Assembly (NCBI GenBank): GCA_038215615.1
Contig: JBBQQR010000012.1
Location: forward strand, 1-63,009
DNA length: 63,009 nucleotides
Origin: Vulcanimicrobiales bacterium
GTDB taxonomy: Bacteria > Vulcanimicrobiota > Vulcanimicrobiia > Vulcanimicrobiales > Vulcanimicrobiaceae
Reading direction: 5' to 3'
Part shown: piece by piece, positions 6,001 to 15,000 of the stretch
Layout: each line of letters begins with the position of its first letter
How positions within the stretch are numbered: position 1 is the first letter of the stretch
Program-made: the position numbers

Positions 6001-9000
6001 GACCATTCCCGCCCTGCGCTTTGGGGATTTCGCGCGTCTGCGTAAGTTTCAGCGCCTCGCTTCCGGCGGCTTGCATCTGACCCAATTGCTCGGTATCCAC
6101 GAAACCGCTGATCACGTCGAGCGCGCGTTTCTGCGCCGCCACAACCTGTAGCAAGTTTGCGCGTATTTCGAGCAGTTGCCGGTCCGCGTCCGATATTGCG
6201 CGCTTCGGAAAGACGAACGGATCGTTGAGCAGTTTCTCGATCGCAGCCGTGTTCTGCACGAGCGGCGTTATCAGGCGCTCGACGCGCGACACCTGAAGAT
6301 CTTTTGAGATACTGCCGGTCGCTGTCGCCTTCACATATCCACGCAGCAGCGGGCGGCTTTGCGCGATCGTGTGGTCGTTTTGCAACACTTTGCCGATCGC
6401 CGGCCCAATGTTTTGCCGCAAGCCCGTGCAGAGCGGCGAAACGTGCAAGTGCTCAATCGTCTTGAGGGGCGTGGCAGCCGGCGCCGGAGTGGCGAGCGAG
6501 ACCGCCATCGCGAGCGTGATCCACATGCCCCTTTTTACGCCGCGAGCGGCTTACGTTCCCTTATCGGCGCCGAAATAGTGCACAACTTTGAAGATCAGCT
6601 GCGGTGAGGTCGAGAATTTGCTGGCATCGCCGTATACGAGATAGATCTCGTTGTGCTCCAGCAGTTTGTGATAGGCAAACGAAAGATTCCAGCCGCTCGA
6701 AAACGACGGCGTCTGACCGAGGTCGAGCACCGGAGAGAAGCCGATGATCCGGCGGACGCCGACCGCGAACGATTCGTTCGAACCGCTTTGGTACGAGTAG
6801 CTCAGGCGCTCAAGCCACTGTCGGTACGTTTTTCCGTTGTCGAGATGTTGCGCCGTATCGTTGGCTTGGAGCGTGACGGACGCCCGGTTTCCCACGCGGA
6901 TGACGATGCTGCGTCCCCACGATATGATGCGGCCGGGGCCAAATCTGCCGGTGTCGTATTCAATGTAGGTGGGATAGGCGGTCGTGCTGCGCCATCCGAA
7001 GCCGCGCGAGTTGATCGTGATCGGCGCGAAGACGCCGTTGCCGAGCAGCAGGTAGGACGACCCCGTGTTGGCCCAAAGTTCGATGAAGTTTTTCGTCAGG
7101 AGATCGAAGCCAAGGTTGTTGTCGGTCTGGTTGAGTGCGCCGGTCGTGCCGTGGTAGCGGTCGATCGAGCCGTAGATCTGGATCCACTTGAACGCGCTTT
7201 TGCCTGAATAGTTCCACTGCTTCCACAGATTGACGTTATAGCCCGCGATTCCCGGATGCGAGACGATGCCGTCAAATGGGTTGTAGTACGTGCCGATTTT
7301 TCGCATGCTGAAACCCGCGAAAAAGTTCGGCGGCGTATACCCGATTCCAAAGTCGGAGCGCTTGTTGTCGTTGTCATTGAGTACGGCGGTTCCGCGGTCT
7401 TCTCCCCAATTGTAATAGGCGAACAGATCCGAATGATTGTTGTAGGTGATGCCATCGGTGACGGTAACATCGCGGAACCCTGGCATGTTGACGGCTACCC
7501 GCTGAGTCGCGATCTGCACCCGGCGGTTCGGAGTTTTGTAATAGAACGATTGGGCGCTGTCGTTACGACCGACGCCAACGGCGTCGAAGCCGGCAAAATT
7601 GAAACGTCCTTCTTTGCCCTCGATCGCATAGCCATCGCGCGGCGTCGGAATGGCCGGCGTGTAGAGCTCTTGGATTCCGGGGCATCCGGTGCACGAGAAC
7701 GGGTTGTAGAAGTTCGCTCCCTGCGTGAAGAACGGTCGGACTTCGCTGAAAAACCGCCTGAACGCGGTCGGCGAAATGCTCTGCTGATCTTTTTCCACGT
7801 TCGAGTAATCCGGATGCAGGGTCGCGACGAACGTCGTGCTGGAATCGAGCGGAATCGAGAGATCGGCGCCGGCCCGCGACGTGCTGCCGCCAATCGAGCG
7901 TGAGGCCAGCGATCCCAGGCCGTAGACCGCGATGCGGCTCTTGGGACGCGTGCTTCCGACGGTCGGAATTCCCGCCAGCCGGCCCGCAAAGGTCACGTCG
8001 TTGAAGTTGGTGTCGCTGGCGGCTCCGCGCCAGACCAAGTTTTCGCGAGTTGCCGGGGACAGCCGAATGAATTGCACCAGCCAAACCTTGCCCGCGCCGC
8101 GCATTCCCGCGAGCGGAATCTTCATCGTCACCGTGTAGCCGCCCGCGCTTATTTTTCCGGCGGACACCCAATTTGGTTCGTAGGAGTTGTTTTCCGTCGA
8201 AAACTGATAGTGCGTGCCGATCGGGGTTGAGGTGAACTTGTACATGAAACCTTGGTCCCCACCCGGCCAAAGATCGACTTGCACTTCATCGTCGGTATCC
8301 ATGCCGACGCCGTTGGTGTGTTCTTGCGCGCTAATCGGCGCCGTTGTTTTCACTTCGAATGCGACGTAGAGAAACTTGCCGTCCGTCAGCAGGTACGCGT
8401 TCGTCGGCTGTTTCGCGGGCTGGTGGAAATTCATATCGTAGCCAAGGGTCGCCGTGGCGGCTTTTTGCCACAGCGGATCGCTCAGCGTACCGTCCATGGC
8501 GGGAGCCGAAGCAATCACGGGAACCGTAAGCATGTCCTGCGCGGGAACCGGTTCGATCGCGGCAGCCGTTCCCGTTGCAAACGCGGCCAGGATGGCCGCA
8601 GCGAGCAACACTTTCATATCAAGGTCCTTTCGCACCGGTAAGATTAGCGTGCGCGACGTCGCGCAGCGTTGCCGCATCAAGCGGGCTGCAGGTACGCTTG
8701 TTGTCATAGTCCGATCGGTCGCCCGGATCGCAGAGCAACACTCCCCGCAGATCCGCTCCGCGTAAATCCGCGCCGCGCAGGTCCGTGCAAAAGACCCGCG
8801 TGCCGATAGTATAGTTTCCGTCGTTCCAATTGGTCTCGTGCCCACAGAGCGCGGCTCCGCTTAAATCCGCGTTTTGAAGATTGACGCGTGAAAGGTTGTC
8901 CGCCAGCAGCGAGGCCCCGCGCAAGCTCGCGCCGCTCAGGTTCGAATCCGAAAAGTTGCTGCCGGCAGTGTGAATGCCTTGCAAATTCTTGCCGTGCAAA

Positions 9001-12000: not shown

Positions 12001-15000
12001 ATCAAGCGCAACTCGGCCTCGGTCAGAGTCGGGGATTTCTTGCGAGCCACGGCTACCTCCAGTAGAAACTAATTCCTTAGTAGACTATAAAGTCTCCGGC
12101 GCCAGTTGTCAACTATGGAATTAATACACCGCAAGGGTGGCGGGCCCCGTTCGGAGAGAGGACGAATAGCGCCGATTCGTTACCCCTATCAATGGAGACT
12201 CAAATGCGGCGTCCCTTCGTCTTTCGCAGCGCCGGGTTAGTCCCGGCCGCCCTGGCCCTGCTGGCCTCAACTGCCTGTTCCGGCGGTACGGTGATTGGCA
12301 GCGGACCTTTGCCCACTCCCGCCCCGGTCGTGCCGCACGTATCGGCGGAGTTCACCGTTCCCACAGCCGCGAGCGCGCCGCAGGGAATCACCCTCGGTTT
12401 CGACGGCTTCATCTATTTCGTAGAAACGGCCGGCAACAAAATCGTCAAAATGACGACCGGCGGCGTCTTTGTCGAAACAGCCGTGCCCACCGCAAACGCC
12501 GGCCCGTTTGGGATTGCCGGCATGCCCGACACGAGCGTCTGGTTCACCGAAAATACGGCCAACAAGATCGGCACCCAGACAGGCACGACGGCTGCTACCG
12601 AGTATCCGCTGCCGACTGCGAACGCCGGGCCGACGTATATCACACGCGGACCTGACGGCGCACTCTGGTTCAGCGAAACCAACGCCAACAAACTGGGCCG
12701 CATCGATCTGAGCGGTGCCATTACCGAATTTCCCGTCCCGACGGCGAACGCCGGACTTGCGGGACTCGTCGGTTACAGCGACGGCGGAATCTGGATCGCG
12801 GAGAGCAACGCCTCGGCCATCGTGCGCTTCGACGTCACGGCCAAGACGTTCGGCACCCCGCGTCCGACGCTGACCGCAAGCGCCGCGCCGACGCAAATCG
12901 TCGTCTGCCCCGATGCTCAGACGTTGTGCTTTACAGAGAACAATGCTGCGAAGCTCGGACAGATCACGCCGGCGGGCGTCGTCACCGAACACTCACTTGC
13001 ACCGGCGACCTCCGCGTTTGGCTTGATTAACGGCGCCGACTTCAACCTCTACTTCACCGACCGCGCACAGAACAAGATCGGCCAAATTTCCGGCATTTCG
13101 TTCGGCGTCACCGAATTTGCGATTCCAACCGCCGGTTCTCAAGCGTCGTTCCTTTCGCTCGGACCGGACGCTCAAGTGTATTTCACGGAAACCGCAACGA
13201 ACAAAGTTGCCCGCCTGACCTACTTCTAGGCGGAGTGACCGGGCGGCGCATCCGGCAGCTCGGCCAGTAGCGCCACGCAGTTGCTTGCCGTGCCTACGAG
13301 ATAACGGCGCCCTTCCACGCCGGCCACGTGCAGTGCGGCCTGCTTCGTCAGCGGCGCGGAATCCAAAATACGGACGGTCTTTTTCTCCGCCGACAATGCG
13401 CGGCCGCGTGTAAAAACCCGCGCCGCCGCATTGAACCCGAGTAGCAGCAACGCCACGATGCCGAGCGCAAAGAGATAGTGCAGCGCAAATCCCACGGCCA
13501 CCCCCGCCTCTCTTGCAAGAGCCCCTCGGGACGCCGGACGCGCCATTATTTGCAGGCGGCCAGTTTCGGTTTGACTTCGAGCGAACCGCGCAGCGCTTCG
13601 AGCTTGCGCATCAGCTGCGCGAACGCATCGAAGTCGAGCGCCTGCGCCGCATCCGAGAGCGCGGTCGGCGGTTCCGGGTGGACCTCGACGATCGCCCCGT
13701 CGAGCCCGGCGGCAGCAGCAGCCAAAACGAGCGGTTCGATCAAACTCGCCCTCCCCGTCGCATGGCTCGGATCCGCGATGACGGGCAGATGCGTGAGTTC
13801 TTTGAGCCGCAGCGCTCCGCCGAGATCGAAGAGGTTGCGCGTCTGCGGATCGAAGCCGCGCACGCCACGCTCGCACAGGACGACGTTGGGGTTACCTTCG
13901 AGCAGAATATATTCGGCCGCATAGAGCACTTCGTCGAGCGTTGCGAAGGGTGCGCGCTTCAAGAGAACGGGCTTGCCGGTGCGTGCCGCTGCCTGCAGCA
14001 GCGTGAAGTTCTGCATGTTGCGCGCGCCGATCTGGATCATGTCGACGTACCAATCAAGAATCAGCAGCTGCGTCTCTGCCAGCGCTTCCACGACGGCCGG
14101 CAGGCCCGCGCCTTGGCACGCCGCCGCGATCAACTTGACGCCTTCCTCTCCCAGGCCTTGAAACGCGTACGGCGACGTGCGCGGTTTGTACGCGCCGCCG
14201 CGCACCATGGCCGCGCCGGCCGACGCCACAAATTTCGCCGTCAGTTCGATCTGAGCGCGGCTTTCGATCGCGCACGGACCGGCGATCATCGTAAAACTTC
14301 CGTTGCCGAAGCTCGCCGTTCCCACGCGAACGACTGTCGCGCCGGCCCCTTCTTTACTCGCTAGTTTGTACACGGACACAGCCTTAAAGACAAAAAAGCC
14401 ACCCCGGTAAGGGCGGCTTTTGAAGAGTGATTGACGATCTTCGCTGGCGCGCTTAACTTACCGGCATTTCTGCGGCGAGGTACCACCAATAGGAATAGCG
14501 CACGGACGAGATCATGTGGAGGGCAGTCTATCACGGCCCGTCGCCGCTGTCAATTTTGGCTTTGCAGGCCGAGCGCGTTACGAACGATCCGCGCACCATT
14601 TTCGCTCAGGACCGACTCGGGGTGGAACTGCACCGCCGTGATCGGGAGCGAGCGGTGCGCGATAGCTTGGACGACGCCGTCGGAGCTACGCGCGCAGACT
14701 TCGAGTTCGGCGGGAAGCGTCGCCGGATCGAGGCAAAGCGAATGGTAGCGCGTGGCGTGCAGCGGCGAGGCGAGCCCTTCGAAGAGAGTGCCGCCACGAT
14801 GCGCGATGGCGGAGACCTTTCCGTGCATCGGTTCGGGTGCGCGCGTCACGCGCGCGCCAAACGCTTCGCCGATCGCTTGCAGCCCGAGGCAGACACCGAA
14901 GACCGGCATTTTCCGCGCGGCGGCGTCGCGAACGAGCTGCACGATCTGCGGCGTTTGACCGGGATTGCCTGGGCCCGGGCCGATCACGAGCGCATCATAC

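Follow-up and report, generated by a model that had tools for sequence, protein, structure and literature searches.

A blaI operon in a Ca. Rubrimentiphilum-like genome (Vulcanimicrobiota), from a lineage of uncultured soil bacteria, encodes a BlaR1-type M56 transducer fused to a pentapeptide-repeat solenoid, together with a secreted paralog of that solenoid. We analysed a stretch of 63,009 nucleotides (the window) and a set of 80 loci chosen among the best 150 of 436 matches, a selection that is not random. Our best reading, for which the chances are about even, is a self-repressed envelope-stress circuit that works by regulated proteolysis and answers a macromolecular cue. The circuit itself, apart from the class of signal, is very probable, and once it is granted, envelope or periplasmic protein stress would be the slightly favoured class of cue.

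Gene order and distribution

The blaI, M56 and secreted pentapeptide genes all lie on the minus strand where the first-pass annotation had placed them. The blaI-family repressor gene (11667..12050, 127 aa; PF03965, E 1.9e-30) has a stop codon that overlaps the start of the M56 gene (9523..11667, 714 aa). A blaI gene was found at 80 of 80 loci, in each case directly 5' of an M56 gene without a transpeptidase domain. These repressors have no conserved Asn-Phe near residues 100-103 and conserve F90 (99%) and F91 (100%) earlier in the protein, in a comparison where Staphylococcus aureus BlaI was not directly aligned.

The earlier figure of 188 carriers among 352 genomes of the order was roughly reproduced, as the M56 part matched 193 of 353 at E<=1e-90 (hand count) and 274 of 353 at E<=1e-30. 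The module is enriched in the order as had been claimed, but "almost confined" to it was slightly too strong, the M56-pentapeptide fusion being present also in a sister family of the same class (2 of 11 genomes), with no match in any of 69 genomes from other classes. Among 20 clusters of distant fusions, the two that carry an organism name are Eremiobacterota, and a second protein search, made with the full alignment, returned close relatives only. Single-ORF fusions had been listed for seven genomes: the loci inspected in G000, G015 and G070 carry them and G007 and G013 match for the M56 part, whereas G001 and G005, whose labels may not correspond, gave no M56 match above the Pfam cut-off.

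The M56 transducer and its tether

PF05569 covers residues 24-328 of the M56 protein (E 2.1e-36) and PF00805 about residues 520-714 (E 8.1e-48); no transpeptidase family matched and the blaR1_generic model scored 86 bits against a cut-off of 400, in line with the earlier assignment of pentapeptide repeats, not a penicillin-binding domain. The structure model (pLDDT 78) aligns with BlaR1 8EXS (Z 19.1, rmsd 4.0, 244 aligned) and with 8EXR at an rmsd of 3.0 across 177 columns. The HELAH zinc motif reported before was located at residues 236-240, and H236-E237-x-x-H240 with E277-x-x-x-D281 (10825..10962, minus strand) matches the HEXXH plus EXXXD site of BlaR1; all 194 sequences compared, which come from overlapping sets, carry both motifs with constant spacing. 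Residues W307, P308, A314, P315, G316, F318 and R327 are invariant in 129 of 129 sequences. The stretch that includes W307, P308 and A314-P-G-V-F318, together with R327 (10687..10749, minus strand), is a putative autocleavage loop judging by its spacing relative to F284 and R294 of BlaR1, with F318 lying 41 residues after E277 and F284 42 after E242.

By hydropathy, the last transmembrane helix spans residues 344-364 and is followed by a signal-peptidase-like P366-S-F-A369 (10561..10638, minus strand), of which P366 and A369 are invariant (129/129). The Ala/Pro/Thr/Val-rich linker beyond it (10111..10560, minus strand) is disordered, with pLDDT<50 over most of 391-517, and because it comprises 87-201 disordered residues (median 134) a rigid coupling of the BlaR1 type is disfavoured. 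The outer location of the repeats, formerly derived from BlaR1 topology, now has four lines of support, namely the match to the N-out/C-out BlaR1 fold, P366-x-x-A369, the CxxC caps and the paralog with a signal peptide. Sequence and model together place an intact zinc site facing the cytoplasm and the pentapeptide beta-helix in the periplasm on a long tether, which upholds the reading of a BlaR1-type transducer with an outer solenoid adjoining BlaI; the repeats would be its sensing element.

That the solenoid acts in the cytoplasm as a Qnr/MfpA-like DNA mimic, protecting gyrase or binding BlaI, is exceedingly improbable: Qnr and MfpA models match weakly and the net charge is about -6, but all scores fall far under the cut-offs (50.8 vs 240), and topology, signal peptides and Cys pairs indicate an outward location. 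The invariant P366 and A369 would also suit a solenoid that is mere cargo, shed by signal peptidase at A369, with the protease reading the cut or an extracellular loop and so monitoring secretion or membrane stress. Signal peptidase does cut BlaR1 at G331 and shed its sensor, but shedding there was proposed to serve turnover (PMC9834060). Outer domains are interchangeable, and one fusion (L249) terminates in the secreted protein's own cap, as cargo might; against this, the outer domains group in one clade and the secreted ones in another (59 each, support 99), so the tethered copy has retained a role of its own, and we regard the cargo account as quite unlikely.

The pentapeptide domain and its secreted paralog

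The outer domain (9526..10110, minus strand) is a two-module quadrilateral beta-helix with at least 8 tandem pentapeptide repeats (Z 18.4 to HetL, 3DU1), and its model ends in a strand, with no C-terminal capping helix. It shares the quadrilateral beta-helix, CxxC bracket and export signal of Rfr23, Rfr32 and HetL (PMC8145042), and differs from them in being fused to a protease-transducer, in joining two modules via a helix-CxxC insert and in a Gly ladder every 20 residues. Beyond that ladder and frequent Asp, no strong conserved outward-facing patch is evident. For most pentapeptide proteins no biochemical role is known, and the words "sensor" and "ligand" do not occur in that review (PMC8145042).

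The caps lie at C523/C526 and C625/C628, with all four Cys invariant (69/69), and MsrA is encoded downstream of the operator at four loci (L168, L170, L231, L235), both of which would fit redox or metal sensing via the two CxxC caps. We consider this very unlikely, given that the CxxC bracket is structural in Rfr23 and that alpha-repeat and HEAT versions with the same operator lack these caps.

The secreted paralog (8619..9449, minus strand) has a signal-peptide-like N-terminus and likely starts at ATG 9449, which follows a ribosome-binding site, and not at TTG 9461; it has a Cys-rich C-terminal cap, and six Cys are invariant in 63 of 63 sequences (model pLDDT 94). It was found in 65 of the 80 loci. 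Since it is absent in cis at 13 of 78 pentapeptide loci and does not adjoin three HEAT-type loci, feedback through this protein is not a requirement. Cognate pairs of sensor and secreted protein are no closer than non-cognate ones (41.3% vs 41.2%), neither gene conversion nor pairwise co-evolution was seen between the two (p 0.33, quick tree), and a complex prediction for outer domain and paralog scored 0.01 (mark 0.32), which has no bearing either way.

Promoter, operators and extent of the operon

The operon is preceded by a sigma-70-type promoter, TTGACA-17-TATAGT (12084..12112, minus strand; 11/12 consensus match), between two CTAA-N4-TTAG palindromes. O1 (12113..12124) abuts the -35 box and is imperfect, with one mismatch to YTAANNNNTTAR and a weight-matrix score of 13.6, its position being kept in related loci. 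O2 (12069..12080), just 3' of the -10, is perfect, the sole exact match in the window and the top-scoring site of the genome (23.8). A promoter of this type was found in 79 of 80 loci. The operator-plus-TTGAC pattern yielded 38 matches in 18 of 20 carrier genomes (reversed control, 0), and was present in 0 of 5 complete relatives without this M56 clade. The palindromic operator at the operon's own promoter is a predicted BlaI site.

Downstream, 6551..8617 (minus strand) encodes a secreted CBM9-like/DUF5916 protein of 688 aa (PF06452 and PF19313 above cut-off; atlas score 0.99 to DUF5916/CBM9 clusters), probably an outer-membrane barrel, and a DUF5916 gene follows at 60 of 80 loci and is divergent at 4. 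A secreted orphan protein of 261 aa (5741..6526, minus strand) is probably encoded by the last gene of the operon; it has a homolog at 55 of 80 loci, no Pfam or NCBIfam match and no atlas kin (best 0.76). On the plus strand, 68 bp from O1, lies a divergent gene for a Vgb-like beta-propeller lipoprotein (12192..13229; PF24684), possibly co-regulated with the operon and divergent at 26 of 80 loci by our own count. An ORF at 5398-3872 seemed conserved and was dropped as an antisense shadow of hydantoinase genes. Absent from the first-pass annotation were the promoter and operator, the two further operon genes (DUF5916 and orphan), the regulon beyond the operon and the outer-domain swapping.

Distal sites and exchange of outer domains

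The CTAA-N4-TTAG operator precedes all distal sites fetched (21/21), each time just 5' of the start codon. The products are DUF5916 proteins, exported or envelope proteins including repeat proteins, blaI paralogs and two microprotein families without annotation, one marked by FxGWGP and the other, secreted, by KxIAxV; by genus, the targets also include MsrA, an S9 peptidase and a DUF4097 protein. Three of the four DUF5916 paralogs of G000 are linked to the operator. Conservation establishes the operator and its targets, to which BlaI would bind; as part of the genomes encode another BlaI that has this operator too, the distal sites are not assignable to one repressor.

One M56 clade carries pentapeptide, alpha-repeat, HEAT and TonB_C outer domains, and along the M56 tree the type switches 5 times, 3 being the minimum, with the operator common to the pentapeptide, alpha-repeat and HEAT forms. 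A single small-ligand pocket is disfavoured because the outer domain has repeatedly changed while the operator was kept. The exported gene and the outer domain are swapped jointly in L115, L130, L183 and G000:C14, and in G000 the sensor and secreted protein are mutual best pentapeptide matches (170 vs <=119 bits; 144 vs <=70). Both observations, and the CBM9-like domain as most constant target, favour specific ligand uptake, with the solenoid binding a glycan or other external polymer, the paralog capturing the same and the CBM9/DUF5916 protein importing or processing it. This is possible though unlikely, as the alpha-repeat circuit G000:C14 is also followed by DUF5916, no glycoside hydrolase or transporter is found among the 21 distal targets, and MsrA and the S9 peptidase are better suited to repair.

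In the favoured envelope-stress circuit, BlaI dimers would occupy the two operators around their own promoter and the copies elsewhere, and upon signal the M56 protein would cleave BlaI, by analogy with BlaR1. Cleavage would induce the M56 module itself, the exported paralog and the CBM9/DUF5916 outer-membrane protein, along with the genus-dependent targets MsrA, S9 peptidase, DUF4097 protein and the two microproteins. The cue, not a beta-lactam, would be caught on the repeat scaffold, for example at its uncapped end, or sensed via clustering, and the secreted paralog might titrate it in negative feedback, as BlaZ does.

We also entertain, as a rather unlikely extension, a plug-and-play envelope sensor in which the M56 clade exchanges unrelated solenoids along with their exported copies, the open helix end senses exposed beta-strands or the circuit's own secreted KxIAxV microprotein, and FxGWGP is an undescribed feedback peptide common with YtrA-type repressors, acting as an anti-repressor or a ribosome-arrest leader. 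If true, exported pentapeptide proteins and DUF5916 would acquire a function for the first time, and BlaIR signalling would gain a new layer of small proteins.

Relation to known systems

The module resembles BlaI-BlaR1-BlaZ and MecI-MecR1-MecA of S. aureus (PMC9834060) in repressor family, M56 fold, HEXXH plus EXXXD, candidate Phe for autocleavage, a signal-peptidase-like site beyond the last helix, a promoter flanked by operators and the likeness between its outer domain and a regulated, exported protein. It differs in its repeat solenoid, long disordered linker and targets, and in having no transpeptidase domain and no beta-lactamase or PBP among the operon genes or the first genes at the 21 distal sites. 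Non-penicillin sensors are already the rule, about 94% of BlaR-like proteins lacking a penicillin-binding domain, with signals unknown (PMC13492132), and the pentapeptide helix is an added variant. The module has two traits expected of non-canonical BlaIR systems, the group of CenIR of Clostridioides difficile (PMC13492132) and PvmSR of Pseudomonas aeruginosa (10.64898/2026.08.03.742534): blaI lies directly before an M56 gene that lacks a transpeptidase domain, and a palindromic operator sits at its own promoter. It differs from them in its outer domain, which folds as a pentapeptide beta-helix and has an exported paralog. That domain is absent from the nine common architectures in PMC13492132, and "pentapeptide" does not occur in its available text or two of its supplements.

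In literature mostly outside subscription journals, we found no paper combining M56, BlaI and pentapeptide repeats or treating pentapeptide proteins in Eremiobacterota, nothing on the Vulcanimicrobium alpinum outer membrane and no mention of DUF5916, and we met neither the operator regulon nor the microproteins there. The module joins non-penicillin BlaR-like proteins, pentapeptide proteins and DUF5916 under one defined operator, so that a reporter could be constructed to screen for the signal, and it reveals two families of microproteins without annotation in a soil lineage that is widespread.

Among the ten literature matches listed, most of them unrelated and from a weak search, GWGP was not present. 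A role of FxGWGP as mimic of the M56 autocleavage loop was weakened because the majority of the further copies examined stand at the head of GntR operons; 15 of 20 precede a GntR repressor and an ABC transporter. Bacillus subtilis ytrGABCDEF likewise has a small first gene before such a pair, but YtrG is a 45-aa transmembrane protein (PMC13729164), whereas FxGWGP has no hydrophobic helix and also lies behind BlaI operators. The GntR-ABC operons headed by FxGWGP resemble the antibiotic-stress ytr operon.

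Gene content and distribution of the module

The window corresponds to contig C12 of genome G000, which has Ca. Rubrimentiphilum and Baltobacteraceae (Vulcanimicrobiota) as its nearest named relatives. We recovered the trio described in the first-pass annotation on the minus strand of the window: blaI (12050-11667; PF03965), the M56 gene (11667-9523; PF05569 at residues 24-328) and a secreted pentapeptide gene (9449-8619), whose product has a signal-peptide-like N-terminus. As had been claimed, the M56 protein has no penicillin-binding outer domain, pentapeptide repeats (residues about 520-714) standing in its place. 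The operon runs beyond the span first annotated, adding a CBM9-like/DUF5916 gene (8617-6551, minus) that starts one base past the pentapeptide gene stop and, 25 bp further, a secreted orphan gene (6526-5741, minus). A long ORF at 3872-5398 (minus) was discarded as a mere antisense shadow of hydantoinase/oxoprolinase genes; fliJ-like and fliO-like genes lie at 16520-17122 and 13226-13876 (minus) amid purine and aromatic biosynthesis genes.

The M56 part was matched in 274 of 353 genomes of the order, 193 of them at E<=1e-90 (hand count), and 80 loci were picked for genus spread from the best 150 of 436 matches. All 80 contained blaI; the M56-pentapeptide fusion was in frame in 74, split by a frameshift in four and replaced by a version with a different outer domain in two. 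The secreted paralog was present in 65, the orphan in 55 and a full DUF5916 gene in 64 (60 downstream, 4 divergent). At loci L108 and L111-L113, DUF5916 diverges from blaI over operators common to both, as blaZ does, and the neighbourhood lacks a secreted pentapeptide gene. Beyond the order, the M56 clade was found in 9/11 genomes of a sister family, where G431 carries the whole module and the fusion of G427 ends in the secreted protein's cap, and was absent from 69/69 genomes of other classes, in a search that covered 80 of 96 intended genomes. Within the genomes searched the module is therefore restricted to the class and enriched in the order; the earlier description of it as almost confined to the order is slightly too strong in view of the sister family. 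The M56-match and FxGWGP tallies, and possibly the KxIAxV tally, include genomes marked unpublished (G186, G197, G217, G223, G227, G229-G231, G248, G260, G301, G315, G428, G439, G446), of which the locus-level claims are independent.

Protease and outer domain

HExxH and ExxCD occurred at fixed spacing in 194/194 sequences (120 database proteins and 74 locus proteins, two overlapping sets) and aligned with the BlaR1 zinc motifs, given as HEXXH plus E242XXXD in the accessible text of PMC9834060. A model of the fusion (pLDDT 78) matched BlaR1 (8EXS) with Z 19.1 and rmsd 4.0 over 244 residues. A314-P315-G316, F318 and R327 were invariant in an alignment of 129 M56 sequences (114 of the 120 database proteins plus 15 loci); F318 and R327, assigned by spacing only, lie close to where the BlaR1 autocleavage residues F284 and R294 would be expected. 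The protease looks intact. By analogy with BlaR1, BlaI would repress and its cleavage by M56 would relieve repression. The module would operate like BlaI-BlaR1, but it has no penicillin-binding domain, nor a beta-lactamase target in the operon or at the 21 distal sites described below.

In BlaR1 both termini face outward (N-out/C-out), and signal peptidase sheds the sensor by cutting at G331 (PMC9834060, accessible text). The last M56 helix (344-364) is preceded by an Arg-rich stretch and followed by P366 and A369, invariant in the 129 sequences, which resemble a signal-peptidase site; that shedding there is itself the readout seems rather improbable. A disordered linker of 87-201 residues joins this helix to a beta-helix of two modules, in which two CxxC caps account for four invariant Cys and no capping helix closes the C-terminal end. 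We regard redox sensing as quite unlikely. The secreted protein is built in the same way, with an additional Cys-rich cap. The outer location of the repeats, previously deduced from BlaR1 topology, is supported by the fold match to N-out/C-out BlaR1, the putative P366/A369 site, the CxxC caps and the secreted paralog.

Outer domain and secreted paralog were reciprocal best pentapeptide matches in G000 and split into separate clades (59 and 59); the pair is therefore an old duplication, with no sign of gene conversion. G000 has four further exported (A/G)NLQ(G/N)-type pentapeptide proteins without CxxC caps (C29:1366-4817, C9:72499-74043 and C2:106997-108280), two of them fused to other domains.

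Operators and candidate regulon

The sigma-70 promoter (11/12) ahead of blaI lies between two CTAA-N4-TTAG palindromes, and 79/80 loci have a promoter of this type. We infer that BlaI binds these sites; paralogous repressors have the motif in common. A weight matrix returned nine sites above 12 in G000, the best four being the module's own O2, one at another blaI locus (C14) and a pair on C41. Directly behind this double operator is a third CBM9/DUF5916 paralog (C41:3329-5509, plus). An operator-plus-TTGAC pattern gave 38 matches in 18/20 carrier genomes (reversed control, 0) and none in 5/5 complete relatives without the M56 clade. Seventeen matches sit at the module itself; the remaining 21 distal sites, all fetched, precede 3 DUF5916 genes, 3 lone secreted pentapeptide genes, 3 blaI paralogs, 5 FxGWGP peptides, 4 secreted KxIAxV microproteins, and one gene each for a secreted alpha-repeat, a DUF4097 and an unknown exported protein. 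Glycan sensing for uptake is an unlikely reading of the circuit.

Swapped outer domains

In a second blaI-M56 circuit (C14:49330-44054, minus), M56 and the exported gene after it share an alpha-helical repeat that has no name (L..LRDHGV-like); a DUF5916 paralog comes next. The circuit has one copy of the operator and, because the operator is common to both circuits, cross-regulation is possible. Loci L115 and L130 combine an M56 domain about 49% identical to that of the window with the alpha-repeat and its exported copy; other outer domains are HEAT-like and TonB_C. On a tree of 82 M56 domains (a quick tree with one very long branch), 5 changes of outer-domain label are required (minimum 3). 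At three HEAT loci the exported paralog was not next door, which counts against a general sensor-paralog rule.

In the sister family (L241-L244, L246), M56 with HEAT-like repeats has the same operator, and the genes after it encode ABC and MFS-like transporters in place of an exported paralog. L013-L015 hold M56-TonB_C fusions; the exported protein after each one we take, from its motifs, to be akin to serine beta-lactamase-family hydrolases.

Because the scaffolds are interchangeable, the tether is long and the targets are of a repair type, we consider an envelope-stress cue more probable than a single small ligand as the signal that the circuit would read, and put its chances at about even. 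About 15,000 M56 proteins in 254 architectures are recorded, about 6% with a transpeptidase domain (PMC13492132, accessible text), which makes a novel outer domain unsurprising in itself, and the pentapeptide fusion may be among the 254. Automatic annotation already names the fusion; our literature searches on the fusion and module found no paper. The main interest lies in the operator, targets and microproteins, which make the open BlaR-like signal question testable.

Microproteins

In 15/80 loci, this window not among them, the blaI operon opens with a gene for the Pro-rich FxGWGP peptide of 30-46 aa. The peptide's profile matched 231/296 genomes of the family, 3/5 of the order's other family, 20/30 of the sister family and, at marginal E, 3 other genomes; its codons vary synonymously (56 copies). 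Among 20 further copies, 5 lie behind BlaI operators and precede MsrA, S9 peptidase or secreted pentapeptide genes, and 15 head a GntR-ABC operon, whose GntR repressor we presume to be YtrA-type. In G000, one copy (C5:25955-26056, minus) is the first gene of a GntR-ABC operon that has a repeat operator of its own, of the TGTACTAG type, and another (C5:29972-30106, plus) lies behind a fourth DUF5916 paralog, whose operator-like site is degenerate.

The secreted KxIAxV microproteins (L263-L291; ~55-65 aa, KxIAxVxA strand motif) were not found in G000, and the four tested had no Pfam family. Their profile matched 29/195 genomes; nearly always behind a BlaI operator, the genes had one upstream in 27/29 cases, the other two not being parsed.
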